Assembly: GCA_036785375.1 (NCBI GenBank)
Contig: JAWMAR010000152.1
Coordinates: forward strand, 2,170,001-2,234,000
DNA length: 64,000 nucleotides
Origin: Leucoraja ocellata
Lineage: Eukaryota
Reading direction: 5' to 3'
How positions within the stretch are numbered: position 1 is the stretch's first letter; each line of letters opens with the position of its first letter. The notes beneath the pieces are model-generated. The model saw nothing but the letters and a program-made list of their open reading frames with translations, did not search any database and was not told the origin of the DNA. This document shows, piece by piece, positions 913 to 63,816 of this stretch. A program made the translations under genes and the position numbers.

Positions 913-2100
913 AGGGCCTGTCCCACTAACGCGACTGTTTTCGACCTTCAAGCTCGAGGGCACTTGCCTGAAAAACCTCGAGCTGAATCGACCGTCGGCG
1001 ATGAAACCGCGAGTCGGATCGACCGTATGCATACATGCGCGCGCACGCACGCGGCGGGGGCCAGGGAAAGCGGGGGAGCGCTGTCTGAAATTCACACCTG
1101 CGATGAACAGGAGGATAAAAGACGGCTGGCACAGTTGTGGTAAGTCCTTCAGAGAGCGTGGAGAGGGGGGTGGAAGAAGGAGTGGAGACACTTTTAAGAA
1201 GCCAGAGAACTTTTAATAAAAGGTTACACAGAAAAGCTGGAGAAACTCAGCAGGTGCAGCAGCATCCATGGAGCGAAGGAAATAGACAACGTTTCGGGCC
1301 GAAACCCTTCTTCAGACTGATCGGGGGTGGGGGTGGGTGGGGACAAGAAAGGGAAAAGGAGGAGTAGCCAGAAGGCTGGAGGGTGGGAGGAGACAGCAGG
1401 GGAGCTGAGGAAGGGGAGGAGACAGCAAGGACTAACAGAATTGGGAGAATTCGATGTTCATGCCCCGGGGGTGTAGACTCCCCAAACGGAATATGAGGTG
1501 CTGTTCCTCCAATTCCCGGTGCTGCTCGCTGTGGCCATGGAGGAGACCCAGGACAGAGAGGTCGGAGGCGGAGTGGGAGGGGGAGTTGAAGTGCTGAGCC
1601 ACCGGGAGGTCAGCTTGGTTATTGCGGACCGAGCGGAGGTGTTCGGCGAAACGATCGTCCAACCTCCGCTTGGTCTCACCGATATAGATCTGCTGGCATC
1701 TAGAGCAGCGGACGCAACTTTTAATAAAGTTTAGCGGGCATTTAAACAATACTGGTCAGTTTACTTTTTTCTCAACAAGCTTTACATTTGATTTCCTTTG
1801 ATTACCTACGATAGCATTACTGCCTACCTCGACTAAATCTACGAGTAAAAAAATATTGATTTTTTTTTCTTCTTTTTTTTTCCCCCCCCCCTTGACCTTT
1901 TTTTACTCGCGGGCATTTTTCAGCTTGCTGAAAAAAGCGCCGCAACCTAATTGATGCCTCGAGTACGCAGGGATTACTCTCAAGCATGAAGGGGAGTTAC
2001 AAAGACCTCCTAGGACCTCGTGTCGGCCATGCTGCGAGAATGAGTCGAGGGCAAACTCTTCTAAAGTCGCGAATTAGGTCCCCGCAGTGGGACAGGCCCT
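913..2100. mobile_element. Non-autonomous DNA transposon with 15-bp TIRs and TTA target duplication (PIF/Harbinger-like), interrupted by a PLE insertion
   Basis: AGGGCCTGTCCCACT (913-927) and its exact reverse complement AGTGGGACAGGCCCT (2086-2100). TTA at 910-912 and 2101-2103. CpG-rich interior with no transposase ORF. Confidence 0.8.
1221..1715 (-). mobile_element. 5'-truncated Penelope-like element: GIY-YIG endonuclease C-terminus plus 3' pLTR with hammerhead motif
   Basis: ORF 1432-1749(-) reads RCSRCQQIYIGETKRRLDDRFAEHLRSV...HFNSPSH...LEEQHLIFRLGSLHPRGMN. Perfect 13-bp TSD AACTTTTAATAAA at 1208-1220 and 1716-1728. Confidence 0.92.
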
Positions 2101-3819
2101 TTAATTGATGTAATACACTGTCAATATCTTTCAGTGTTTCATAGAATGTGATTAATTTCTTAAATAACATTTTGCTTTTGTATATCATCACACAGGTTCA
2201 GATACATAACCAAATGCATCTCTTTAATAATGATGTTCCAAAAGTCTAAATTGTAATTCTGCTATCATTCATTCTGTAATTTGGAGTTATCCTCTGAAGA
2301 TATAGCCGATGCTACACAGTCAAAACTTTAATGACAATTAATGGCCAGTGGCTTTGTGTACCCTGTTACCGATTCGGATTTCTTTATTGACCTATATGCC
2401 AAGGTGCAATGAAATTCCTTGTTCACATGAAGCTTGCAAACAGTAATAATAAATACAGTGGCAAGTACAAGTGTAAAACAACAAACTTGTCTAATTACTT
2501 GGCTAAATTTTTCATTTATTGTCACTAGCCTCAAAAGTTGCATTTATTCACCAAAATAAATGGGGAAGTGCGCCTGGAAAATCCGTGCAATATTTTCATG
2601 ATATAAATATTGATTAGTTCTTATATATACATCCTAAAATAGGGTGTCAAGTTTGGTTGATCTGAGTGAGTAAATGTGCTGCTTAAAAAAAACAAAAACA
2701 TTTTTGCAATTCCAATCCAAGTATTTATTTTTGAATGCGCCACTTGTTTATCTGCTTTCTGTTGTGCCAGAGGTGGATAAATGTTTGCTAGTCCCTTGCA
2801 TTTCTCTCCAAGTGAGAACTTAAATCTTGATTAGAAAATGGAAGAGAATACTGTTTTCCTCAAAGGTTCTATAACTGATAAGTCACAGTTTTTGAAGGTG
2901 ACAAAGGGAATTTGGTGCCGCTTGATAGAAAAGTCTTAATGGCTAATCGGGCAGTATTGCAATGACAACTGGCTAACTTGTTTATTCTAATATACCATTT
3001 GAGTTAATTTATTTCCTTTAATGAAGAAAATCTCAATTTTTCCATGTGGTGTGTGAGCAACAAACCTGAAACTTTGTGGAGGATTATTAATAGAATAATT
3101 GATATTTGCATTATTTGGTTTTAAATGTGCCCGCCTCCCTTTGGCAGCAGTCCAGCTTATACTGTTCATTTTATGAGAAATGATTCTTGCTTCCCGGTGA
3201 GCTCTGTTTTTAACCCTTCAGCCCTTTGGTAATGAAATCCATTTTTAACTGCCACCCCTATAGTATGGCATTAATATAATCAATGAAACTTTGTCTAGAA
3301 ACGAGCTACACAAAGATGTGGTCGGAGAAGAGACAAGGAAACAATTGTATTTGTAATAGAAATGCACAATACTTGGTTTAGCTGGTATTCGGGAGGAGAA
3401 TAAATTTTTGAATAGGATAATTACACTTTAAATAAGCTGCTTACACATTTGCCTTTCCCATTTTGGCAGTGCTGGCAATAGACAGTATTCTTCTTTACAA
3501 TCCAAAACAATTCAAGCTTTAGATATAAATTGGCATAACTAGAAAATGATGCCCTTCAGGGTGGCTTCTTATGAATAAAATTGCACAAAAGACAAGGTAG
3601 AGTTGGGCAATGAATTGAAGAACTGCTCAATTCTAGAATTTGACCAAGTGAAATTTTGTAAGCTCAGTTTCAATAATAAAAATTCCATTCTTGCAAATAA
3701 TTTTTTTAATATTTCTGAGTTTGAGTCTAAAATGTGGATTAAGTTTATAAAATATATTTAAAATATGCCTGGTGGTTGAGAGATTGGAACCAAGAGCTTC
3801 AACCGTGTGAAAAAAATCT

Positions 3820-4030
3820 TGTGGCTCTATTTTACAGAGCAGACTGGTTCTTTGTCATGGCCAAATTTCATTCCTTAGCCAATGTACTACAACGGTTCGA
3901 GTCATTTATCTAATTGCTGTGTGACTGTTAAATTGCTGTGCATTAGTTAGCTATCGTGTTTCTCTATGTTACAAGACATCAAAAGGATTTTAAATACGAT
4001 AATAATCTTTGGACCCCAAAGTCTTGAAAA
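3820..4030 (+). mobile_element. Old Deu-domain SINE relic (SacSINE1/AmnSINE-like)
   Basis: gtcatttatctaattgctgtgtg...ttgctgtgcattagttagctatcgtgtttc resembles the Deu core; heavily diverged. Confidence 0.4.
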
Positions 4031-4279
4031 CTCAGCATTTTTTATTGGCTTTTATAATCCACTGTATTTTGCTGAACATTTACTTGAAATTAAAATGAGG
4101 TTTTAACCTCTATTGATGAAACTCTTTGTTCAAGTTTAGTTGAGGAGTATTCTGCTATTTTGTGCACAAATGTTGTATTTGACTAACTTCTACGATTTCT
4201 ATTGAAGGCTGCTGGTTAGAGACCAGCGAGTTCAGATATTCAAAAAATTGAAGGTAACAGTTTTAGAATATGAAGCTCA

Positions 4280-4810
4280 ATGGTTCCTGGGCAGTAATAT
4301 ACTTTGAGCTGTAAGAGTGCAAAAGCGAGGAAGTTAAACTAAACCTTCTAAATCCTTGGTTATGCCCTAAATGGAGTGCTGTGTGCTGTTCGGGCCACCA
4401 TACTTGAACAAGGATGTTGATGCCTCTGAAAAAATATATGGTGGAGCAAATGAAGCAATTCAGTTGTGTACAGAAACTTGAAGTTTTGTCTTGCATTATA
4501 GAATGTTCAGGGGATATTTACAATATCTTAAACTACGAAGAGTTTTTATTAGAGTAAACTGCTTTGTCAGGAAGGTTGATAACGCAAGTGTGTAGATTTA
4601 AGATTGTTGCCACAGGAGACAGAGAAAATATAACAATGCACTGTCATTAAAAGATAGCAGAAGATTCAATAGTAGCCTTCAAAAAGGGAGTTGGATAAAT
4701 ACTTGTAAATAATTGCAGGCTCTGAGGAAGTTGGTGGAATTAATTTTGAATTCTGTCAGAGCCAGTATGTGCATGGTTAAGCCGAATGGTTTCCTTGTCT
4801 TCTGTATGAT
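4280..4810 (+). mobile_element. Degenerate CR1/HER1 LINE 3' fragment
   Basis: Decayed LVRPHLEYCVQFW-like DNA at about 4355-4400, and CR1-type tail (ccttcaaaaagggagttggataaatac...gccgaatgg...tgtatgatt). Confidence 0.5.
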
Positions 4811-5952
4811 TTCCAGAATATGACAGATTTCCAGAAATAATTTTTTCTTATAGCCCGAAGTTCCCAGCAGAAATTGTACTCCTCGTTACTACTTCAATAA
4901 CCCCACCTTCCAAGTTGGCTGATAAACATTATCGATCTAATTCCACTGAATCCAAAACAGCATCAAGTATGAAAACTCTGGTCTTGAGCATGCAGAGTTG
5001 TTTTTCGTTATTAAACTTGTTTGACTTCATATTTACTCCTACCTCCAGCACAGCAGAAGAAATGAATGTAATTCAAGCCTGAAGGCTGGGTTTGGACAGT
5101 TTGCTTGTGGGAGTTGAAATTTGCCCATCCTTCTGGCACTGCTGATATTCTGACGGTTCTTTGAAGATTGTTTATTCTTACAATGTTTTAAGTGTTTAAT
5201 GTTTTTCATCTATAACAGATGTCAGATGAATATGACGGTGTCAGTGGAGATCTATCTATTAAAAGTAAAATATTACTGTATTGCCTTCAATATTGGGCTT
5301 CTAAGTCAATATCAGAAGCCTAACATCTATGAGCTGATCTCTATTTTATCCTGCTAAATCCGATTATGGTAGACTGGCGGCAAACTTGGAGTTAAAGGTA
5401 AATCCAGGTCTACAAACCTGCCGGCAATAAGCAGAAACTAAATGTAACAGCAGGAATGCTGCCTGACTATTTACAGGCACTGAGCTTCAAAGCTTGTAGA
5501 CCAGTATGAAACTGGCTTTTAACTTGCCCCTTTTCTTTCCTGATGTGTTGACATTTTGTGTGTCTACAGAAAGTTGTTTTTGTCTCTTCTGAAGCTGGTG
5601 TAAAGTTTCACAGGTGACAAGAGCAGCAACCTTGCAGTATCTTGCAAAGTAGCCATTAATTGGATAATCCTGGACAGTAAACATCTCAAAGCTGCCTCAT
5701 TTAATGTCCATGTGTACACATTCTACAGTGTCACTGCACATCATTTGGAGTCATGAGAAGTTGATATGATTTCTCACCCTACTCTGGGGCATGAGGACAA
5801 GTAAAATCTGCTCTAACCTGGTGAAAACCATAAGCTTTACATTCTTGCTCAGCAATGTCTATTTACTGCCACTAAATTACTGGTGGAAAGGAATAAGAAC
5901 ATAAATAATTTATTCAAGGAGTATAAATACAGAATTTCGTGAGTTAAGATGT

Positions 5953-6004
5953 TTTTTGGTTCCAAAACTTGTCAGAAGTTTTTGGTTCCAAAACTTGTCA
6001 GAAG
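5953..6004. repeat. Perfect 26-bp tandem duplication
   Basis: tttttggttccaaaacttgtcagaag at 5953-5978 and 5979-6004. Confidence 0.9.
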
Positions 6005-6092
6005 TGTTTTTCTTTTTTAAATCCACTATCAATCTTCAAGATTCCTCCCTTCACCTTGCTATGCGGCAATAGATTGATTTAGGGTGAAGAGG

Positions 6093-6817
6093 GTGGCGCT
6101 TCTATGGCAGCCTCGCGTACAGTCTGTCTGTTTTCGTCTTTTTTTTGTTCTTTTTAGTGTGTTTAAAAAGTATATGTTAATGTTCACTGGTTTGTTTTAT
6201 GTGGGGGGTGGGCGGTGAGGTTGGGGGAAACTTTTTTCAATCTCTTACCTTGCCGGAGATTTTTGGATCGTATCTCCAGTTGCTCTGCGGCCTAACATCG
6301 TGGAGCTGGAGGCCTTGCTCAGGACTGACTTTGAGCCCCACTCAAAGCATGGACTTGCAATCGGAGCCGATCCCTTGCCTGGGATCGATGCTCCAACTGC
6401 GGCCTGCGGACTTTAACATAAAGGAGCTCGCAGTCTCTGGTTGAGACTGACGGCGGAAGCTCCAAAAGGCGCATGACGTTCGACTAGCCACGACCCTGGG
6501 TAGATCGCCCGTCGCGGGGGAGATGAGATTCCCCCCCGATACAGGAGCTTGATTGGCACGCCGCCGGCTACGGAAGTAAGATCGTCCCGTCAATGGAAGG
6601 TAAGTGGCCCCCAACTGCTGGAGGACAAAGAAGGGAGAGATTGAACTTTTTTTCACCTTCCATCACATTGAGGAATGTGGAGGAGTCGCTGTGGTGGATG
6701 TTCATGTTAAATTGTATTTTGTGTGTTCTGTTGCTTTTTATTGGTATGACTATGGCAAATCAAATTCCTCGTTTGTTGCAAAACATACTTGGCTAATAAA
6801 GTATGATTATGATTATT
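6093..6817 (+). mobile_element. Unclassified CpG-rich non-autonomous retroposon with LINE-like 3' tail
   Basis: Sharp CpG-rich block in AT-rich intron, ending in aaattcctcg...cttggctaataaa and (ATGATT)n. No coding capacity. Boundaries approximate. Confidence 0.6.
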
Positions 6818-7225
6818 TAAGAGATACAGGTTTACTTGGCCAGCTTTGAAAGAATTCTTAATTATATTACAAAAACATGACAGCATTTTGTGTTGCCTTA
6901 TTACAATTGCAGCACTATTTCTCAGCGTTGTTTTGGTTGATAAACGTTCTTGCAATCCATCTTATTTAAAGGGAGGATTATGAGGTGTGTCGTTCTAAAA
7001 TTTGTTTTGGTTGTAGTTTCTGAAATTATTGGAATGTTTTCAAGTCATGCAAAGTTTTGAGCATATTTGAGTCTTCTTTAGGTCAATTGGGCTCCAAAAC
7101 TGAATGTGCTTTTCATTGGTGAAAGTTATTTCTGTTCTTAGGCCTTGGTTTTGTAACTCCCTTCCAAAATGTATAATCATTCGTGCCGTCTCTCTGTCTC
7201 TGAGACGACTTTAAAATCCTTTTGT

Positions 7226-7341
7226 GGAGGAAGGAACTGCAGATGCTGGTTTAAACTGAAGATAGACACAAATAGCTGGAATAACTCAGTGGGACAAGCA
7301 GCATCTCTGGAGAGAAGAAATGGGTGACGTTTCGGGTTGAG
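7226..7341 (-). mobile_element. PLE-derived short repeat, hammerhead core truncated
   Basis: aaggaactgcagatgctgg...gggtgacgtttcgggttgaga, flanked by near-duplicates aaaatc(c)ttttgt at 7213-7225 and 7342-7353. Confidence 0.8.
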
Positions 7342-8506
7342 AAAATCTTTTGTCTGTCTGTGCTTTGACAGCCTTTTACCTATGTTTTCCCTCTTTCTAT
7401 TGCGGACTTGTGTAAGGATATTCAGAGATGCTGTCTAATCTTTGCAGTGCATGATGTAAATAGAATTTGTTCCATGCACTCTAACTAGAAATCTCTATCA
7501 GATTTAAACCTGTACAACATAAGCCATTGAGTTGGAACCACAATGCACAGACACCCAAGTAAGGCTGTTATTCAATTAGATTCAACACTTTAAGTGACTG
7601 TAAAATAGTTTATTTGAATTTTATATTGTCCTGCAGTGTTGTGCATATAAAAACAATTGAAAGAAATACACATATGCCTGAGACTTGATTGAGGAGTGCA
7701 AGACTGTTCCCTCTGACACTTCCACTTGTTCCTATCAAATTTCTATTGAGTAAAATAATACTGATCTAATGGTAAATGTATGTGCCACTATAACTGGAAT
7801 AACCAGTTTTCTTTATCTTCAGAATGTGTCAGTTTCACTTAATTTAATGTGATTTGAAAAAAAGGTTTGCGTGCAAGTAATTCTATATGTCAGAAATGTA
7901 GCACAGCTTACTTGCTTGTACTACTGTTGCCTTTCCACAAGCATTGGATAATTTGTATCCCGGTGAGTAATTGTCACCTTTATTCTAAGAGTAAAATCGT
8001 TTTTGTTAATCTGATATTTGATGAAGAATGGATTCAAAATTTAAATCAAAAATAAACTTCATCTGGAACTTCCCCTCAGTCATGGAATGAGCATGAAGTG
8101 AGTGTGGTGTGGTGAAGCTGACATTTAAACACTGAAACCAAAGCGTTGCAGTTTTAAAGATGTACCTTTTTAGTAGCTTCAAAAAATTGGGCTTTACAGA
8201 ATGAATGAGAGCTCTTCTTAAAATTAAACCTTTTTAGTGCTTTGCATTGTAGATGACAACTGCAAAAGATCTCTTGGTGAAAGATATTTCTTGCTGCCTT
8301 CATTCTGAAAGGCTTATAATGCAGAGAAGCTTGGTTGAATGATGAAGTAATAAATTGGAGTCCTCTGAATTTCTCTACTCCATATTTTTCCTTTAAATGT
8401 AATACACTCAAATCAAAGTCAGTCTCCGGATGGGATGAATATGGAAACTCTCAGTTGAGTGTATTTGAATCCTGAAACTGCAATGCAGCTGTAATTCAGT
8501 TTACAT

Positions 8507-8633
8507 TTCAGATTCAGATTCAATTTTAATTGCCATTGTCAGTGTACAGTATAGAGACAACGAAATGCATTTAGCATCTCCCTGGAAGAGCGACATAGCA
8601 AACAATTTGAATAAATAATAATAAGTGTAGTGT

Positions 8634-8680
<47 letters not shown>

Positions 8681-9772
8681 GGTGGTGATTGGGTAGTCAC
8701 AGAGGTACATGTGGTGATTGGTAGTCACAGAGGTACATTGTTGAGTAGAGTGACAGCCGCCGAAAGAAGCTGTTCCTCGACCTGCTGGTTCGGCAACGGA
8801 GAGACCTGTAGCGCCTCCCAGATGGTAGGAGGGTAAACAGTCCATGGTTGGGGTGAGAGCAGTCCCTTGGCGATGCTGAGCGCCCTCCGCAGACAGCGCT
8901 TGCTTTGGACAGACTCAATGGAGGGGAGCGAGGAACCGGTGATGCGTTGGGCAATTTTCACCACCCTCTGCAATGCCTTCCGGTCGGAGACAGAGCAGTT
9001 GCCATACCATACTGTGATGCAGTTGGTAAGGATGCTCCCGATGGTGCAGCGGTAGAAGTTCACCAGGATCTGAGGAGACAGATGGACCTTCTTCAGTCTC
9101 CTCAGGAAGAAGAGACGCTGATGAGCCTTCTTGATCAAAGTAGAGGTATTGTGGGTCCAAGAGAGGTCATCGGAGATGTTGACTCCCAGGAACCTGAAGC
9201 TAGAAACACGTTCCACCTCCGTCCCCTTCCTGAAGTCTACAATGAGCTCCTTGGTCTTCTTGGAGTTAAGGGCCAGGTTGTTGTCAGCGCACCATGCTGC
9301 TAAGTGCTGGACCTCCTCCTTGTAGGCCAGCTCATCGTTGTTGCTGATGAGGCCAATCACCGTTGTATCATCTGCATACTTGATTATGGTGTTAGTACCA
9401 TGTACAGGTGTGCAGTCATAGGTGAAGATGGAGTAGAGGAGGGGGCTCAGCACACAGCCCTGTGGAACGCCGGTGTTCAGGGTGAGGGTTGAAGAGGTGT
9501 GCTTGTCTAACCTCACAGACTGGGGTCTGTTGGTTAGAAAGTCCAGTATCCAGTTGCAGAGGGAGGGGTCGATGCCCAGGTTACCGAGTTTGGTGATCAG
9601 TTTTGATGGTATAATGGTGTTGAATGCTGAGCTGTAATCGATGAACAGCATTCTTACGTAAGTGTCTCTGTTGTCGAGGTTGGAGAGGGCGGAGTGAAGT
9701 GCCGTTGAGATGGCATCCTCCGTACTCCTGTTCTTGCGGTAGGCAAACTGATATGGATCCAGTGTGGGGAGA
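8507..9772 (-). mobile_element. 5'-truncated Rex1/Babar-type LINE (RT domain)
   Basis: ORF 8725-9825(-): [18 protein letters not shown]...[11 protein letters not shown]...[12 protein letters not shown]...KYADD; (GAATCT)n 3' tail at about 8507-8522. Confidence 0.9.
8636..8679 (+). repeat. 44-nt poly-G tract inside the LINE 3' UTR
   Basis: Uninterrupted G run, followed by a roughly 28-bp tandem duplication gtggtgattgg(g)tagtcacagaggtacat. Confidence 0.9.
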
Positions 9773-10310
9773 CTTAAATATAATTGATATTTGTTCATTT
9801 CTAGCATAAGCATTGTTATGCACATGTAGTATTTAATAACTTAAACTCCTACAGCCAGTTTGATGGATATTAAAGTGGTGAATCAGCTCCTTCATTTTGC
9901 TGAATTGCAAGGAGGAAGGAAAAAATATTCTTTGGGCCAAATCTTGTTACTGCTAATTGATTGACTAACTGACTTTCTTTTGAATGAGCACAGGGATTGG
10001 GTGCCAGTGCAAATGGCAAAGAATGAGACATTTGATGAGTATGATGGTTTGGACGGCAGCAGAGTTTTTGAGACCTTTGAACTTTGTGCTTGGGATGCTA
10101 GTAATGAGGATATTGGTGAAAGTTGGGATAAGGAAAATTTGATAAAGTTGGCATCACTTTGGGGGATAAAGTGTACAATGTGCAAGAGATGGATGTTGCT
10201 GTGGCAATGGATAGAATGTGAGTTTGAAACTTTGTACACAGCGTCACAAACAAATTGTATCATTTAGAATCTGAAGATTTTATGCCATGAAAAATCAATG
10301 CAATGGTACA

Positions 10311-10605
10311 TGTGTAGAAAGGAACTGCAGATGCTGGTTTACACCGAAGATAGACACAAATTGCTAGAGTAACTCAGCGGATCAGGCGGCAACTCTGGGG
10401 GGAAAAGGAATATGTGACATTTCAGGTCGAGACCCTTCTTCAGACTGGGACTCGGTGAAGAGAGAAACTAGAGGTATGAAAAGGTACAGAACAAATCAGA
10501 GCCGGCACTGCTGATCATGAAAAGGTGGAGCACAGAATGGTCTATTGTTGGCTGTGAAAGAGGTGATAACAAAAAGATACAAACACTGAAACTAGCAGGA
10601 AGACT
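10311..10605 (-). mobile_element. PLE-derived repeat with hammerhead-like core and extra pLTR sequence
   Basis: tgtgtagaaaggaactgcagatgctgg...gtgacatttcaggtcgagacccttcttcagact. The right boundary is approximate. Confidence 0.8.
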
Positions 10606-10879
10606 AAGCAAGGGTTTCACTGTTAAACTGTTAATGGATTTTCTCTTCACACCAGGGTTGCACTAAGAGTATAATCATGTTCTGCAAAGGATTACTATAA
10701 TTCATGAACATCACTAATAGATTGGAATTTCTGTTTAGTAAGAACCAGGTCTCCTAAGCTATTTTGCGATAAAATGGCAAGTCCTTGTGGACACAGAAGG
10801 TAACAATTCCATTTAATACTCGCCTAGCACTGAGGGCTGTTTAAGATTGTGATAAGAATTGTGTTGTGTTAAGAAGAGG

Positions 10880-13342
10880 CATCCTTGCCTCTTCCCCCTC
10901 TCTGATCATAAGCTTAGACGGTTCACCATCCCTTCTCCGACACCTCGCCCCCGCTTCCTCGAGAAATCACCTTCCATAATCTAAAATCCATTGATCCCCA
11001 CCATCTCTCTGACCTGCTCTCCGCCACTCTCCCCTGGACTCAACCCCCATCTCACTTGATGATCTCACAAACCATCTGAACTCCACCTTGTCTACCTCCC
11101 TCAACACTCTGGCCCCCCTCAAAACAAGAACCGTAACTTTCAACACATCTTCACCCTGGTACACACCTGCACTTCGTAAACTGAAACAGACTGGTCGCCG
11201 ACTTGAACGACTCCCAAATAAATCATCTCTCACAGTCCCACCTTGAAGCTTACAAACTCCACCTCACTGACTACAAAGATGCCCTCATTGCTGCAAAAAT
11301 CTGCCTACCTCTCCTCCATATTCACCGATCCCTGCCTAAACCACAGAACCCTCTTCTCCACAGTGGGCAACCTCCTCGAGCCTCGAGCCAACACTCTCCC
11401 TACCTCTACTCCGGATCTCTGCAACTCATTCCTCCACTTTTTCGCTGATAAAATCAGCGCCATCTATCAATCTTTATCCCCTGTACCCGACTCCCCAGCA
11501 TCTACTCCACCACCTACCAAGGCCCCTCCTTTCAAACATCTCCACTGACCTCCTTACCCCTCCTCCTCACTGTTTCCTCTCCCAGTTTGACCTGGTCACC
11601 CCTATTGAAATCTCCAAACTCATCTGCTCTTCTAAACCCACTACCTGCTCCATCGACCCTCTCCCCACTCCCCTGTTGAAGTCCTGCCTCCCCGTTCTCT
11701 GCCCCTACCTCACTAATCTCTTCAACTCCTCATTGTCCCAAGGAATTGTCCCCTCCGCTTTCAAAACTGCTGCTGTTACACCAATCTTAAAGAAACTGGT
11801 CTTGATCCCTCCTCTCTCATTAACTACCGCCCAATCTCAAACCTCCCCTTTCTTTCAGAAACCCTGGAGCGTATAGTTGCGTCGCAACTTCATTCCCACC
11901 TCCTTGCGTATAACCTACTTGAACCCCTCCAATCTGGCTTTCGTCCCCTCCATAGCACAGGAAACTGCTCTCAAAGTCCTCAACGACCTCCTCACCTCTG
12001 CTGACACTGGTTCCCTCAACATCCTCATCCTCCTCGACCCGAGCGCAGCCTTCGATACAGTGAACCATAACATCCTGCTCACCAGACTCAAAGACCTCGG
12101 CATTGAAGGCTCTGCACTCCGCTGGCTCCGTTCCTACCTTTCCAACAGATCCCACTTCATCTCTCTCCACAACCACACCTCTGCTACAGCCACAGTCACT
12201 CAAGGCGTTTCCCAACGCTCCGTACTTGGCCCCCTCCTCTTCATCATCTACATCCTCCCCTTGGTCAGATACTCCACCACTTCAACCTGGACTTCCACTG
12301 TTACGCTGATGACACCCAGATCTACCTTGGCACCAAATCCTCCCCACAACCCCCCCCCCCCCCCCCTCCCATATCAACTCCTGTTTGTCAGCTATAAAAA
12401 CCTGGATGCAACATAATTTCCTCAAACTCAACAGCGATAAGACAGATTTCCTCCTCATAGGCTCCAAATCCACACTCAGCAAAATCAATAACCCACTCTC
12501 ACCATCGACGGCACCAATGTCTCCCCATCTCCCAGGCCCGCAACCTTGGCGTGATCTTTGATTCCACCCTCTCCCTTGAGCCTCACATCCGCCATGTCAT
12601 TAAAACCTCCTTCTTTCATCTCCGCAACATCGCCAAGCTCAGACCCTCTCTCACACCTCCCGCTGCTGAAAGACTCATCCATGCCTTCATCTCCTCCCGA
12701 CTGGACTACTGCAACTCACTTCTCCTTGGCATCAGCTCCACCTACATCAACCGACTCCAACTGGTCCAGAATGCAGCCGCCCGACTCATCACCCACACCA
12801 AATCCTGGCATCACATCACTCCAGTCCTCAAATAACTTCACTGGCTTCCCATCTCCCACCGATCACCTACAAAATCCTGATCCTCACCTACAAAGCCCTC
12901 CACCATCTGGCCCCCCCCATATCTCACTGACCTCCTCTCCCCCCTCAGATCCACATCAGCCGGTCTCCTCTCCATCCACAAGTCCAACCTCCGCAGTTTA
13001 GGGGACAGAGCCTTCTCCAGGGCAGCTCCCAGGCTCTGGAACTCCCTCCCCCAACTGATCCGCAATTCCGTGTCCCTCACCATCTTCCAGTCCCGCCTCA
13101 AGACCCATCTCTTCACCTCTGCCTATCCTTAGCCCCACGTCCCCCTCCCTTTTCATCTGTGCATTAATTGCCTTATTGTGTTTTGTATTGAATTCTGTCT
13201 TTACTTTGTGTACTAGTCATGTCTCTACTATTTATTTCATTCCCCTTACATGTTTTTCCTCTACCTGCAAAATTTTTATAAGGTGTCCTTGAGACTCTTG
13301 AAAGGCGCCCCATAAGTAAAATTTATTATTATTATTATTATT
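10880..13342 (+). mobile_element. 5'-truncated, frameshifted L2-clade LINE
   Basis: Endonuclease SDH motif (TCTGATCAT 10901-10909), LLD.SAAFDTVNH, YADD at 12302-12313, FFHLRNIAKLRP...HAFISSRLDYCNSLL. Ends with ccttgag..ttgaaaggcgc stem-loop and (ATT)n tail. Confidence 0.92.
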
Positions 13343-15087
13343 CCAGATTTTGTGTGTGTGCTTCCTCATGCAAGGTGCATGGATTGGTGCCTAAAGTGCC
13401 ATATGATGCAAATGTATATTTTATGGATCTAGCACTTTTGTTTCTAAATGTTTCTCTCCTCTTTCTAAAGTTATTTTTAAAGGCAAAAACATTTCCATTA
13501 AATGGAATGAGACCAAAGTATATACTCTTTGCATCGAGTAATTTGCAACCTGAAAAGCGAGAGAGGGAATGAGTCAGCCTTCAAATTACGTAGAGTTTTC
13601 ATAACCATTCAGCTCCTTCATTTAAAGTCACTTGTTGCATTTGGAGCTGCGGCACATTGCACAAGGACTCCAAAAGTATCCATTGTGCGACAGCAGCAAG
13701 GAGACAAGTCAACATGTCAAACCCTCATAGTAACTCTGTAAGTTCTGAATATTTTATCTAAATGTTTTCAATTCGAGGAGTGCCACCTTTCACAGTTGTG
13801 CATTCTCTGTATTAGATATATATTCAGTTCAGATCTGAACTTTTATCTTTTGTCCATAATTTGGTTAAAAGATGTAACATTATCATCCAGAATGATTCAT
13901 TTTAAAATTGACTTTACAAATGCTACTTTACAAACTAATTTCCACTCCTTCAAATGTGTTTGTTGTGTAGTTATTACTAAAATTATAATAGCCACAGCCT
14001 CCAATAATATCAGTGTTAAACAGTTTCCATCGTCTTTGTGATTTTAATTTAACACTGATCCCTGAATTCTAATTTTATATTTTTACGAAAACCCACTGAT
14101 TTGAATTATATTCTGATTGACTTTGCTATTGACCCAGCTTAATTGAAAGCCTGATCTTTTTTAAATTCATTGGAGATTAAATGTTAACGGATTGGATCTG
14201 GAACAGAGTTAAGGTCTGTACTAAACCTGTTAACAGAGCAAGTCTTAAGTCATCGTGCTGAATTGACCCATTCTAGCAAGTTAGTAATTGGATTCAAATT
14301 TTGCCAAGTGCAAGTGTATTTGGTTGGAACCTTGGTTGAAATTGATAGTTTTTCATATTTTGCATTTAGTAGCTAATTAATAGCTTGGAATCTGCATTTA
14401 TTGTGTACTTGTAAAAAGCCATTCAGTGCCAACTACAGGGAATGCTCGTAGTGTGATGTAAATGTATCTATTTTAATCCATCTTTGATCAGTTAATGTTT
14501 ACTTGAGGATGAATCCATCTGGTACGTGTAATTTCCAAAGTGAAAACCTGTTTTTCACTTATCCAGGGTAGCAACAGTGTTATGGTGTGAAGATAAAGCA
14601 CCTACATTAGTATTTTATATGTAGCTTTCCACTGTCGTTATCATTCATGTACAAACTTGGGTAGTTTGTATTGATTCTTTCAACAGTGGAGTGTTTCAAA
14701 TTCAAATGCAGAACATCTTTGCTTAAGATCCCCGCTTAAACTTGCTCTCAACGGGCTGGGTATTAAAGTAGTCTGCATGAAAGGATATTTTTAATTGAAA
14801 GAAATGTCATTTATTTTTCTCTCCCCCCCCCCCCCCCCCCTTGCTCAGATCAAATTTGCATTTCTACATTTTTCTTCTATCCTCTTACCTTACCCACCAC
14901 AATACACTGAAGTGAATCGGGAATATACTTTCTCGGTCCCCAGATTTATATCTCATTTGAAAAGTGGGTTCTGCTCTCTAACTGCATTGGAGCAGGGCTT
15001 GAACTTTTGAGCACAGGCTAAACAAAACCAGACAAATGCAAGCATAAAACCTTGATTTATAATCATTTGTTGATCAGCTGGGGTGCA

Positions 15088-15289
15088 GTCTTGACCTCCC
15101 ATCTACCTCACAGGAGACCTTTGAACAATCTTTAATAGGGCTTCAATGTTATATCTTGCACTAAATGTTGTATCCTTTATCTGTACACTGTGGACGGCGT
15201 GATTGTATTTATGTATTGTCCTTGACTGGATAGCATGCAAACAAAAGCTTTTCACTGTACACCTGACAATAATAAACCTAAAACTAAAT
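15088..15289 (+). mobile_element. LINE 3' UTR fragment (Rex1-like)
   Basis: ctggatagcatgcaaacaaaagcttttcactgtac...acaataataaac is the reverse complement of the tail of the RT-bearing element at about 20372-20445. Confidence 0.65.
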
Positions 15290-17388
15290 TAATGGAGTTG
15301 TTCAGATTTGTTTTTAATATGATTCATAAATGGCATGAATAACTGTTCCAATTGGTTTACCAATCAAATTCAAGTTGCAAATAGTTAACTGTCACTGACC
15401 AGCGTATGTCCAATAATGAGTTATTTTTCCCCCAAAACGAAATTTATTCAGATTAAAAAAATATATACAAAACAAGAACTCTTCATATATTCTCAGTGTC
15501 TCTACATTCAATAGTTAATTATATTTGCACCTATCTTTTAAACAAAACACCCTGCCACTCACATGGCCTCCCTTCCCTTGTTACTGAGAGTTGCTCCATG
15601 AACAATTGTACACATCAGCTGAATGAATTTGTGGTTCCCCTGAAATGGTACAACATAATGATTGTAACCATACATCACTTGGACAACACCAAACATGTTT
15701 TGTGATTTATATCCAGCTTTCCTTCCTTGTTAGTGGATGAACAATCAAGACACTTTGACATTCCCCCCCCCCCCTCTCCCTCACTTGGGTTATAGCCATC
15801 TGTCTTTGCATCAGCATACGTTGCATAAACTGCCTTCCTTAAACCACTGATGGATTCACAGACCCATGAAAATTTATGTCTGTGATTTTGCCTGTGGGGG
15901 AGGAAGCTGATATTAGCAATGTAAATGAGGAGAGATCGATCACAAATTTGGGCTCCCGTGACCTGGTCTGCAGGAGCGTGAAATATAAAAGTACCTTCAA
16001 TTTACTTCAGTTCAAGAGTTGGCATCGAGTAATTCTCAGGTGACTGAAACCAGTTATTCCAAGGTTTTTTTTTTTGTCTGATACCTAAAATCCAGTTCCC
16101 ATGCTGCTAGTATAGATTAAAAAAATGCTTTTGCTTGCGGTGTTTCATGCCTTCCCCCCCCCCCCCCCCCCCTTTATAACATTTAATTTGATTGTGATGT
16201 TCATAATGTCATTCTGATATTTTTTTTAGTAAAATGTAAGCTCAGTGTGTTGATTGTATGTATTTATGTGGCTCATTAGTTAGACTCCTTACCCCTCATC
16301 CTCCAGATAGAAAACTTTATGCACTCCACATTTTTGAAAGTGAGAGCATCTATTTGTCTTATAGGTAAAAAGATCAAAAAGCTGAGAAACGAAAGCTAGA
16401 GAAAGTAGTAGCTCCAATTTGTCAAACTGGGTGTAGAAATAAATAAATGGGAAATGGAGATTCATTTGATAGCGAAAATAAATTTAAGTATATGATGTTT
16501 AAAATAAAAGTGCAACAATTTGACATCTCTCAGATTGAGACTGCATTTTAGTTTCATCTGTTCAGTGGCTTAACAGGAATACGTCCTATTTTATACAACA
16601 AGGTTTGAACTGCTAAGTACTACCCTGAACTTTCTACATGGAGTTTAATTTGCAATTAGTGTACAAATGCAACAATTTTGTGAATATCACGGGGAGATTA
16701 TGGTAAGCTGTTTTCATATGGCAAACACTTAGTGATGCAAATCATCTAACAATTTGTGATCATTCATGGCAAATCTCTTGCAAATTACTAAATGATTTAA
16801 ATGATAATGGTGTATTAAACTTTGCACCATTTAGCTTGTATTATTTTCCCTGCACAAAAGATCTAATTCACAGAGTTTTCATTTTTCTGAACCACATAGA
16901 AGGGGGACATTTGGCCCATTGAGTTGACGCCAGCGCTCGGTGCAATCCCATTTGTATGGGTAATTTGCAGCAGCCAGTTAAATTACAAACCAATACATCT
17001 CTCTAGCTACCCTTAAGTTAACTCAAGGTGAGAAGATAAATTGTCCTCTCATTTGACGTCAGAATCATTTGTTTGAGGAATAAAGATTTTCTGCTACACT
17101 ATTTTACCTGAGATGCAAAAGTTATTCCTGGAGGAAAGGAGATTAAGAGGATATTTGATGATGGTGCATGTGATCGTGCAAGCTGCAGGCTGGAGAAAAG
17201 CTATCTGCATTGACAGGTGGTTCGAGGATGGGGGCACAGAATCAAAGTGATGGGTAAACGTGGAGAATGTGAGGGAAATGTTTTGTACACATGTTTGTGG
17301 TCTGAACTTCTGCCCGTAAGGATGGTGGAAACAGCCAATCAAACAAAACTCGGTTACCACTTGGAACATGATTTGATAGGAGTCAAAA

Positions 17389-17540
17389 TGTAGAAACAAG
17401 AACTGCAGATACTGGCTTGCACGAAAGGACACAAAGTGCAGGAGAGTATGAGGAAAGGTCTCCACCCGAAACATCACCTATCCATGTTCTCCACAGATGC
17501 TGCTTGACCCGCTGAGTTATTCCAGCACTTTGTGTCCTTT
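17389..17540. mobile_element. Tail-to-tail inverted PLE-derived repeat
   Basis: aaaggacacaaagtgc at about 17426 is inverted relative to gcactttgtgtccttt at 17525-17540; degenerate core tatgaggaaaggtctccacccgaaacatcacc. Confidence 0.75.
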
Positions 17541-17740
17541 CATGATTTGAGAGGAAATGGGACTGAATAAGATGATCTATGATTGGGAACAGAACGATGG
17601 AATCCTGTGCTGTAACAATTGTTATTAATTTAACACAACCAAATGAGAAGATGAGCCTTCTCTCAATTGTGAATGAAATTGAATCATTGTGACATCTGCT
17701 TAAAAAAAACAGCTCACACTAGCTTATAATGTGGAAACCT

Positions 17741-17897
17741 GGAACTACAGATATTGGTTTATCAAGGAAATACACAAAATGCTGGATCCTGGAGGACATG
17801 GATCATGGATAGGTAACATTTGGGTCTTTTAGCTTAGTTTTAAACTAAAGGATCAGGACCCTTCTTCAGATGTTTTGGGTCGAGACCCTTCTTCAGA
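17741..17897 (-). mobile_element. Rearranged PLE-derived repeat with two partial hammerhead cores
   Basis: gacccttcttcaga occurs twice (about 17857 and 17885). Confidence 0.7.
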
Positions 17898-18689
17898 GGG
17901 TTTGAATAAGCTCATCACGAGTTTGATGAAAATTACAGAGAAGTTGAGAATAGCAACTCTTGACATCAAGGCAGCAGGAAGCCCAGCAAAGATGAAGTGA
18001 TTATGGGTTAATGGTAAAACCTTTTGTGGCTGCAGTTATTTTGATCTAAGCAGGTGACAGTGGTTGATGGAGACCAGTGCTCCCAGGACATATGTATAGG
18101 AGTTTGTCAAGGAAATATCCTTGGCATCCAACATCAGTTGTTTGATCCGAAGACTGTCTTTACATCCTACTCGAGAGTGGGGCTGCTCACTGACTTTGTG
18201 TTCTAATTCAAAGTGAAATAGCCTGTGCCAACCCACATCAAGACTCCAGGCTTAGGTTGACAAGCAGTGGATAGGCATTACACTGCACAGATGCCAAATA
18301 ATGAGACAAGGGCACGCAACGTCTTCCCTCAACATTCAAGGCACATTGTCCACAACCTGAAAACATACCCTTTGCCTGTATTTCAATTGGTGTATCTTTT
18401 AGCACATTAAACCACATTGCAGCAATGTTGGTGAAGTTGAAACAGTAACATGATATTTTGTTGAAATCTTAACTAGTTGTCAGAATGTGGTTCACTTGAA
18501 AAGGGGATGCTTCTTCATTCTTCTCTGCAATAGAGTCATGGCGTGTTGACATATTCTTTGACGTGTGTTTCGAGGCCACTCTCTGAACCATTATAAAAAG
18601 GACATTCAAAATATACCCTTGATCTGAGTTCATTAAACATTTTCAAAGGTGCCATTTAGATTACTTATTTTTCCAAATTTAAATAATAA

Positions 18690-18880
18690 AAATAAACTGC
18701 TGGAAAGACTCGCAGTCAGCAGAAAGAGAAGCAGAGTTGGCATTTATGATCAGACCCTTATTCAGACTCTTCATCTGAAAAATGCTCTGCCCGTTTCCAA
18801 AGATGCTGCCGGACCCGCTGAATATTTTCAGCGTTTTCTGTTTTTATTTCAGACTTTCCTATATCTGCAAATTTTTTTTT
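18690..18880. mobile_element. Old inverted PLE-derived repeat
   Basis: aaactgctggaaagactc ... agatgctgccggacccgctgaatattttcagcgttttctg; core decayed. Confidence 0.55.
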
Positions 18881-20127
18881 AGATTTTTGGAAAAATTAGT
18901 CACTTTCTGGTTGTGCTGCAACTGCTCAAACTATTAATTTACTTAAGATTGACTAATTTTGGATGTGTTACTGAATGTTTTCATGTTTGATCAAGTTTCC
19001 ATATAGATAATCTGCCAGTCATATGCACCAACTCGATTGAATAATGAAATGATTAAGCATTAAATAACTGTGGAAGATCATTTAATTTTATATGCTGATT
19101 AATGTTGCCTTTGGGGGGAGATCATTAAATGAGAGTTGCGTATTATAGATATAATTTACTGCTTTTTCTTGACTGGGGTTGACATGTAACCTTGGTATAC
19201 TTTTTTTAAAATAGTGCATGTCAGCGGACACACAATTACCTGAATATTACAGGTTGAAATTACTGAAATTGTGTGTAAATAAAAGCAACTTGCTCACTTG
19301 AATCATTCTATAATGCCGGTGAAAAAGAACATATGTGCCATTGGATTTCCAGATTGAAGAGACACATACCTGATCTAAATCTAGAATTCCAGTATGTTCT
19401 CTTTCACCTGCATCGTAGAATGATTCAAGTGAGTGAGTTGCTTTTATTAACAAGAATTTCAGTAGTCTCAAGCTGTAGTATTCTGTAAATTAGCATAAAT
19501 TTTCCCGTATGTGTTTTAAGTATAATCAATGTGGATTTAACTTGCATGAATGTCTGATAAGCATGTTTTTTTAAGTGACGTACAAGTCGGCCTTTCATTG
19601 GGATTCGGTACAACACGCCCAATCTGAGATCATGGACTTTTGGGTTATCTGTACAGCTTGATTTTCAACTTATTATAAAAAAAAATTTAAAAAAATTGTA
19701 ATGAGGCTTTGAATTGAATCCGTACGAAGGATGCTAATACCACTCACAGCCCAAGCCCCCCCCCCGGAGACATTGTATTCACCATTTCCATAAACGGATG
19801 AATCTCTTTTGAGGAAATTATTTTCGTCCTTCCTCTGACAATGGGTTAACATTGCCATCATTCAGTAATATAACATGAATCATAGTAAATCCGTTAATGT
19901 CTTTCCCCAAATATTCTCCTTGTGACAGCTCAGCCACATAGCAATTCAGTGCAACAACCAGGAGTTCAACCACGACTTTCTACTTCTTTACCATTTTTGG
20001 GATGGCTGATGATTTTGTAGTTTACTAAGAGTCTCTTAAACATTACATTTGAAAGATTCTTTCCATGTCAGGAATGGTTTTTAAAGCCTTTTTTTTTATT
20101 TTTACTTTCTAGCACAGCACTTTGACA

Positions 20128-63816
<43,689 letters not shown>

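Follow-up and report, generated by a model that had tools for sequence, protein, structure and literature searches.

Minimal hammerhead ribozymes in the pseudo-LTRs of metazoan Penelope-like elements (PLEs) occur mostly as solo motifs, which the available text of Cervera and De la Pena (2014) ascribes to truncated PLEs (PMC4209133). The function of the PLE hammerhead is called unclear in the accessible part of PMC8557442. Insertions of EN+ PLEs are described there and in PMC3846280 as a partial tandem with an adjacent inverted 5'-truncated copy and an optional 30–40-bp tail at one end, and the Neptune clade has a Cys-rich Zn-finger-like linker between RT and EN (PMC8557442). A close experimental system is the anole Poseidon element PAc, for which two internal RT start sites 3' of the hammerhead set the tail in vitro, both strands were extended, uncleaved RNA was the main template and the cleavage site was without RNA ends (PMC11167929). 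Animal non-LTR retrozymes are defined by tandem units that each contain a complete hammerhead (bioRxiv 10.64898/2026.07.22.740005).

We analyzed a 64,000-nucleotide stretch of Leucoraja ocellata contig JAWMAR010000152.1, referred to here as the window. Positions within the repeat are counted in the element sense from hammerhead C3 as 0, so that H17 is +27 and the first base past the cleavage site is +28. Sequence comparison found the repeat at all 20 positions given in a preliminary description of this DNA, and a profile search resolved 27 arms that form 21 insertions, one of them (33554–33737) previously unlisted; the reversed control sequence gave no profile matches. Eight of the 21 are head-to-head inverted pairs, which the preliminary description had lacked, and direct repeats of at least 9 nt surround seven (Table 1). 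The motif proposed earlier, CUGA(N)GA-N-GGGU-YUCG-RCCC-GAAAC-GUH, is real but is exact in only 3 of the 27 arms (C3 at 1315 minus, 35070 plus and 46786 plus), with a looser core pattern at 8 sites. GIY-YIG coding sequence adjoins the unit at 1435–1715, as had been reported (tblastn E=3e-52; 13-bp TSD). A second such junction at 41895–42440 did not hold up: tblastn gave no match there, a forced alignment was equaled by 31 of 200 shuffles, and the stretch is a long pyrimidine-rich PLE-type 3' UTR with 69% identity over 513 nt to a copy in locus L206.

Table 1. Repeat insertions and the host gene in the window.
Feature	Position	Strand	Remarks
5'-truncated young PLE	1221..1715	-	GIY-YIG ORF end, stop 1432-1434; C-rich 3' UTR; hammerhead C3 1315; short 3' end; 13-bp TSD at 1208 and 1716
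Short tailed arm	7225..7342	-	Starts inside stem II, without CUGA
Tailed arm	10311..10490	-	Hammerhead C3 10443, C15.2 mutated; short pyrimidine-rich 3' UTR stub; upstream limit approximate
Head-to-head pair	17389..17549		Tail-only minus arm and decayed plus arm; 10-bp flanking direct repeat
Decayed tailed arm	17731..17897	-	Hammerhead 5' part duplicated
Head-to-head pair	18684..18873		Old, decayed
Solo short copy	21206..21300	+	Starts at C3; core present, 1 stem II mismatch; 9-bp TSD
Head-to-head pair	27880..28085		Minus arm tailed; CUGA reached by neither arm; 14-bp TSD
Head-to-head pair	32829..32990		Old; minus arm from C3 (32925), stem II decayed; right limit approximate
Head-to-head pair	33554..33737		Old; missing from preliminary description
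Solo short copy, young family	35069..35165	+	Complete minimal hammerhead motif, C3 35070
Solo tailed copy	36948..37087	-	Starts at G(-2); helix III palindrome mutated; 12-bp TSD
Solo short copy	38662..38766	+	Core 5' half damaged
Solo short copy	39078..39162	+	Starts at stem II; 7-bp flanking repeat
Short copy	41243..41347	-	Core with 3-nt deletion
Old-family copy	41880..42440	-	Long pyrimidine-rich 3' UTR and hammerhead unit, C3 41982, G12 mutated; GIY-YIG match not significant
Head-to-head pair	44341..44623		Old, with spacer; 9-bp flanking repeat
Solo copy	46786..46902	+	Starts at C3; complete minimal hammerhead motif; partial tail
Head-to-head pair, young family	51615..51750		Most of hammerhead missing; plus arm tail-only
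Head-to-head pair	54496..54653		Minus arm tail-only; plus arm from G(-2), G16.2 mutated
Solo short copy	62352..62450	-	Starts at G(-2); C11.1 mutated; 11-bp TSD
Host Ikaros-family gene	20128..63816	+	Coding exons near 20128, 29561, 43372, 45625, 61490, 63090; limits approximate

The host gene belongs to the Ikaros family by a PDB match; the name IKZF4 is a tentative assignment from sequence motifs. The repeats had been placed in its introns, which is true of 14 of the 20 sites, lying between recognizable coding exons, but not of the remaining six (1221–18690), which are upstream of the first such exon at ∼20128. Nothing points to a role of the repeats in this gene. A CpG-rich stretch at 1001–1500 was dropped as promoter evidence, since it overlaps a young insertion. 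The window also contains broken non-LTR reverse-transcriptase ORFs (8725–9840, 11013–12835, 20618–21494 and 47136–48645), presumably L2- or CR1/Rex-like, the third of which encloses the repeat copy at 21206. A second dispersed repeat group, which we assume to resemble cartilaginous-fish SINE or LINE 3' tails, lies at 24445–24600, 25249–25310, 27024–27162, 28611–28743, 53601–53651, 54248–54372 and 59847–59914, and a run of 200 N (32013–32212) falls inside an intron.

The repeat was then followed through 120 arbitrarily placed 10-kb stretches (1.2 Mb), mostly on large contigs of the 3.44-Gb assembly; loci L061–L080, picked for long ORFs, were excluded from every frequency count. The sample held 603 arms, which extrapolates to ∼1.7 million genome-wide, and one exact 37-mer of the youngest family occurs 74,735 times in the genome. 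Thus, the high density noted earlier for the window is genuine but ordinary, at 4.2 arms per 10 kb against a sample mean of 5.0. On one contig (C1), insertions between L141 and L161 (∼0.2–1.2 Mb) recur between L172 and L188 (2.1–2.9 Mb) with near-identical flanks in the opposite orientation, as would result either from a segmental duplication that is large and inverted or from duplication in the assembly.

A complete copy of the source element is present at locus L061 and consists of a terminal repeat, an uninterrupted ORF of 1,223 amino acids, a C-rich 3' UTR and a second terminal repeat. Its ORF matches RVT_1 (E=1.8e-6) and GIY-YIG (E=0.011), both slightly below the Pfam cut-offs. The short unit is the 5' UTR before this ORF and also the 3' end of the element, and it aligns end to end with the PLE terminal repeat. 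L061 and other long loci have the partial-tandem pseudo-LTR and the adjacent inverted truncated copy of EN+ PLEs, and the optional 30–40-bp tail at one end is present as well, with 3' ends near +92 and +131. The GIY-YIG fragment in the window has at least 150 genome matches at ≥98% identity, and other unit variants are preceded by the 3' UTRs and GIY-YIG remnants of older families. The repeat source is therefore an EN+ PLE, and the motif is the PLE minimal hammerhead, in agreement with the preliminary description, because L061 carries an RT and GIY-YIG ORF between its repeats. A Cys-rich cluster precedes the GIY-YIG motif, a linker common to Neptune and Nematis in the available text of PMC8557442. 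In having such an RT-EN linker, as in Neptune, the ORF differs from that of anole PAc, and it starts ∼165 nt past C3 and not, as in the accessible account of PAc, inside stem II (PMC11167929).

Three observations concern the element itself. Residues ∼190–520 of the L061 ORF form a long Pro-rich low-complexity stretch from the N-terminal region to the RT. RNA read depth is near zero over the 5' third of the ORF, and full-length transcripts are accordingly rare in the sampled libraries. At L048:1287–1884 a young copy runs from +7 through the 5' UTR and ORF start and then skips ∼3.4 kb to the element 3' end; it is a unit-length copy that starts at the hammerhead edge and has an internal deletion.

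The hammerhead core, C3-U4-G5-A6-N-G8-A9, G12-A13-A14, A15.1-U16.1 and H17, is found in L061, which looks active, and in the majority sequences of all seven clusters, and it is intact in 117 of the 603 arms. The extra base after A9, the G10.1-C11.1 pair and the palindromic 15.2–16.2 are also present, with CG kept in six of the seven cluster majorities. These features, together with the loop-less palindrome and the mostly single occurrence, are those of the minimal hammerheads in the available text of PMC4209133. Unlike the typical members of that set, with 4–5 bp, only a 2-bp helix I (GU with RC) can be drawn, as in a variant described there for D. virilis (PMC4209133). By its sequence the motif is a minimal hammerhead apart from helix I length, and its activity is a prediction; Rfam gave no match to it, and in fold predictions the monomer does not fold as a hammerhead and none was more stable than shuffles. 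Such motifs have shown weak activity, or activity that depends on protein, in published work (PMC4209133, PMC11167929). Solo PLE terminal repeats with minimal hammerheads are known, as are the motif and the element class, and the present case is very abundant: ∼1.7 million arms and ∼115,000 complete motifs by extrapolation, set against ∼4,000–9,000 descriptor hits given for coelacanth and Xenopus in the accessible part of PMC4209133, where the methods differ.

We next consider how the insertions are built. As had been proposed, most copies are ORF-less stand-alone insertions with TSDs, which were seen at 7 of the 21 window insertions and, at ≥8 nt, at 42 of 107 solo copies in the random sample, compared with 4% when flanks were swapped. 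Of 44 young solos, 29 had the TSD no more than 40 nt from the junction and one had it far upstream, and therefore there is no long 5' transduction. The 3' ends of 117 young arms fall into two groups, 70 at +80 to +101 and 46 at +124 to +141, which match the tail signature of the two RT starts of anole PAc in the available text of PMC11167929. Head-to-head pairs outnumbered tail-to-tail pairs in the sample (113 versus 19), and many overlap by 8–10 nt. Exactly one arm was tailed in 61 of 79 classifiable short pairs, where ∼40 were expected (34 of the 113 pairs were unclassable for tails), as it was in all 9 long young pairs for which the two ends could be resolved. All three features of the EN+ PLE anatomy in the accessible parts of PMC8557442 and PMC3846280 are present in long and short insertions, with palindromes at the inverted junctions. 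In contrast to that anatomy, most arms here are reduced to the terminal 95–135 nt and have a fixed front edge.

The position of this front edge was determined from 117 young arms (129 less 12 duplicates); 9 of 331 core-reaching arms had less than 300 nt of upstream flank. Seven young arms ended in +41 to +11, 20 in +10 to +4, 47 in +3 to -6 and 3 in -7 to -50, the modal end being -2 (16 arms). The 47 ends in +3 to -6 came from 90 arms at risk, or 0.074 per nt, ∼50-fold above the rate of 0.0008–0.0017 per nt between -7 and -550. The boundary is ragged, in that 20 of 110 young arms end in +10 to +4, and ∼40 of the 117 continue far upstream. Across all families the same peak appears in blurred form, with 96 of 177 solo arms at risk ending in +3 to -19. 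Exact counts over the genome drop from 56,604 at +6 to 40,633 at 0 and 18,512 at -6, losses of 28% and 54%, compared with 10% over a control 6-nt step; this contrast is approximate, because the control had degenerate CpG letters and another pattern and the -6 base is variable (43 of 52 long copies). The sharp front edge is genuine. The available text of PMC4209133 describes no clustered 5' boundary, and the literature consulted, mostly open-access main texts and exclusive of Repbase, yielded none at a PLE hammerhead and no such skate or shark repeat.

The bases at the edge were also inspected. Of the copies that reach C3, 16% continue with GT and then depart. A direct stutter of the first bases precedes 13 of 119 solos, compared with 3 in control windows; TSDs account for some of these, and a single duplicated locus contributes two. 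The base before GTCTG is G in 14 of 28 solos, where 8.6 would be expected (p=0.03), there is no G surplus before AGTCTG (6 of 23 solos), and the base before departure genome-wide is G in 2,654 and a pyrimidine in 3,912, inverted junctions included. A cap-templated G was set aside as weak and confounded. RNA reads from a related or identical organism that holds the young family break at +129, +91 and -3 to -7; the libraries, which carry the same species label as organisms with the family, are fragmented poly(A) or single-cell. They showed no pile-up of molecule starts at TCAGT, which such fragmented, passenger-dominated libraries could hardly reveal. On either strand, coverage of the hammerhead bin far exceeds that of its neighbors, as passenger copies in host transcripts would produce. 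Neither an upstream exon common to the short copies nor a long 5' transduction was seen, and both ideas were dropped.

We consider it somewhat better than an even bet that the short repeats are ORF-less PLE end pieces made by RT run-off from an uncleaved template. RT would start at internal sites ∼92 and 131 bases past the first core base, on uncleaved RNA predicted to begin 2–3 bases before the hammerhead core, and would run off the RNA 5' end to give a 95- or 135-base cDNA. This cDNA would integrate with a TSD, either solo or as one arm of a head-to-head pair, the pairs likely arising when both DNA strands are primed, presumably by twin priming, and the inserted copies would then decay neutrally. 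The 5' boundary would thus be the RNA end, and the RNA end may be a transcription start at the initiator-like TCAGT. TCAGT at this boundary fits the initiator consensus. In the available texts, D. virilis Penelope has an internal TATA-less promoter (PMC2377424), and a rotifer element has an initiator-like TCACT (PMC3846280). Initiation in the 5' repeat would be expected, because the anole protein needs RNA downstream of its start sites, according to PMC11167929, and in a repeat-ORF-repeat transcript only the 5' repeat has such sequence. From a start at +92 or +131 in the 5' repeat, synthesis up to the RNA 5' end would yield 95 or 135 nt, which are the observed sizes.

Several details would be consistent with run-off. 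The first-base stutters would fit run-off with re-priming, and two run-off cDNAs could anneal through the near-palindrome TCAG-T-CTGA, in line with the pairs that overlap by 8–10 nt. The long copies would need read-through templates or transfer to the 3' repeat. Extending the behavior of the anole element, a Poseidon-clade PLE, to the skate element is an argument by analogy, and the accessible text of the PAc study contains no discussion of run-off insertions (PMC11167929). In D. virilis Penelope the boundary geometry differs, because transcription starts 46 bp before an intron, and it is the 3' end of this intron that meets helix I, in the texts available (PMC2377424, PMC4209133).

Two live rivals share the front edge with run-off. 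RT might stall or abort at the boundary on longer templates, for example at a bound protein, at the C-rich tract (G-rich in the cDNA) or at the splice-acceptor-like CAG. This we regard as unlikely. It would account for the long copies without strand transfer, and every family has a pyrimidine-rich tract followed by CAG just upstream, with ends that are ragged from +10 to -6; however, the ends precede the C-rich tract, and only 3 of 43 young arms end in -7 to -50. If structure caused the stops, they should fall on the 3' side of the stems (+20 to +30), but the genome-wide counts show no end step there, and the pile-up lies past the whole RNA structure, which RT moving 3' to 5' has already traversed.

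Alternatively, the template might end at the hammerhead edge through processing and not transcription initiation, for example by 5'-3' exonuclease trimming to a protein-bound ribozyme or by splicing or debranching at CAG, which we judge distinctly unlikely. The 2-bp helix I begins with the modal G(-2), the 3' end of the D. virilis intron maps to the helix I 5' end in the available text of PMC4209133, the anole hammerhead works only with the protein of its element in that of PMC11167929, and the weak cap signature would suit a processed end. Against processing, short copies are not preceded by a common upstream exon, and retention is steady from -1 to -2 (T 0.69, G 0.67), unlike at a splice junction.

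The preliminary description had suggested a SINE- or retrozyme-like non-autonomous ribozyme family, whose short copies would be transcribed, self-cleaving and re-copied by PLE enzymes. The enormous copy number, near-uniform length and TSDs speak for such a family, and copies that keep TCAGT could bear an internal promoter, yet the modal copy already lacks most of TCAGT. A short-only lineage and common junctions are absent. For 175 short copies, the nearest long copy lay at a distance of 0.136 and the nearest other short copy at 0.139, six of seven clusters contain long or medium copies, and the seventh consists of the 11 most decayed copies. A comparison of 68 short with 40 long arms of the young family found a difference at 1 of 42 columns (p=0.028, uncorrected), and 3 of 113 inverted junctions recur. 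These tests covered the 1.2-Mb sample and 117 young arms, and small short-only lineages could therefore be missed. The same two 3' ends and the one-tail asymmetry occur in short and in long ORF-bearing insertions, which argues against a separate family. No unit matched an RNA polymerase III SINE head (tRNA-, 5S- or 7SL-derived) in Rfam at E≤1.

The state of the inserted cores points the same way. Core, palindrome and stem II are kept together in only 40 of the 603 arms, and G12, which lies in a CpG, has changed in 59 of 201 copies (29%). Mismatches at non-CpG core sites number 130 of 2,010, compared with 510 of 6,030 in the flank, and CpG sites in the core have decayed by 28–29% versus 23–27% at other CpGs. 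Selection on inserted cores was rejected as an explanation of the small core-flank gap, which is open to detection bias and family differences. The inserted copies decay neutrally. The cluster majorities retain the core but vary further downstream, as selection in active lineages could produce, although these majorities are few and related.

Arrangement in tandem was scarce, with 31 same-strand neighbors among the 603 arms. Four tandem arrays repeat a 67-nt piece of the unit, G12 to the short 3' end (L132:7700–7950, 8800–9030 and 9120–9420; L138:8720–9035). One junction is common to the two contigs, a point in favor of a separate family, but the arrays lack the CUGA half and occupy 2 of 228 loci; they are either products of repeated RT re-priming or a small satellite derivative. 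The copies share with the non-LTR retrozymes a PLE pLTR origin, a type I hammerhead, the lack of an ORF and dispersed monomers, but differ in being solo or inverted, with few tandem arrays that are without the core 5' half (bioRxiv 10.64898/2026.07.22.740005). There is also no surplus of ends at the cleavage site. A separate family is thus unsupported, because of the PLE 3' ends, one-tail pairs, shared subfamilies, dispersal and neutral decay; without a lineage of its own, without complete-hammerhead tandems and with a core that decays like its flanks, this reading is largely refuted and highly improbable.

Self-cleavage by the hammerhead as the event that sets the template 5' end is refuted as the main source and has almost no probability left, although it may have a minority share of up to a few percent. 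Three of the first 30 young arms began at +28, but these reduce to two events once a duplicate is removed, one of them at a palindromic junction, and the copies keep the core that cleavage would remove. Genome-wide, the loss across the cleavage site is 4.2%, compared with 6.0% at the next control step, and therefore cleaved RNA is not a main template. The stops at the front edge of the ribozyme, and not at its cut site, likewise argue against cleaved linear RNA in that role. At L147 and its duplicate in L182, a copy from exactly +28 is preceded by sequence like the ORF start of a related family, which may record a template jump off the end of a cleaved RNA. Random 5' truncation of PLEs in the ordinary sense, which would suit the smooth, drawn-out tail of extensions (20 to 820 nt), is refuted as the sole explanation of copy lengths, as the preliminary description had anticipated, by the ∼50-fold end rate at +3 to -6 and the genome-wide count step, and has a negligible chance of being correct.

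Under the run-off reading, a further step can be proposed tentatively, and we think it possible but rather doubtful: a strong-stop step of PLEs, in which RT from the 5' repeat runs off the RNA start at the hammerhead edge and the cDNA either integrates or transfers to the 3' repeat for copying of the ORF. The minus-strand strong-stop DNA of LTR retroelements is likewise a short cDNA that begins internally, extends to the RNA 5' end and spans the terminally redundant repeat. The putative PLE product would differ from it in being target-primed, not tRNA-primed, and in being integrated directly. If such a step exists, it would have left more than 1 million stubs, several percent of the genome, and neither ribozyme cleavage nor RNA circles would be needed to account for pseudo-LTRs and more-than-unit copies. 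The repeat class, whose origin can now be named, may make up ∼5% of the skate genome (603 arms of ∼100 nt in 1.2 Mb, by extrapolation), and its tens of thousands of near-identical young insertions record the starts and stops of PLE cDNA synthesis at single-base resolution.
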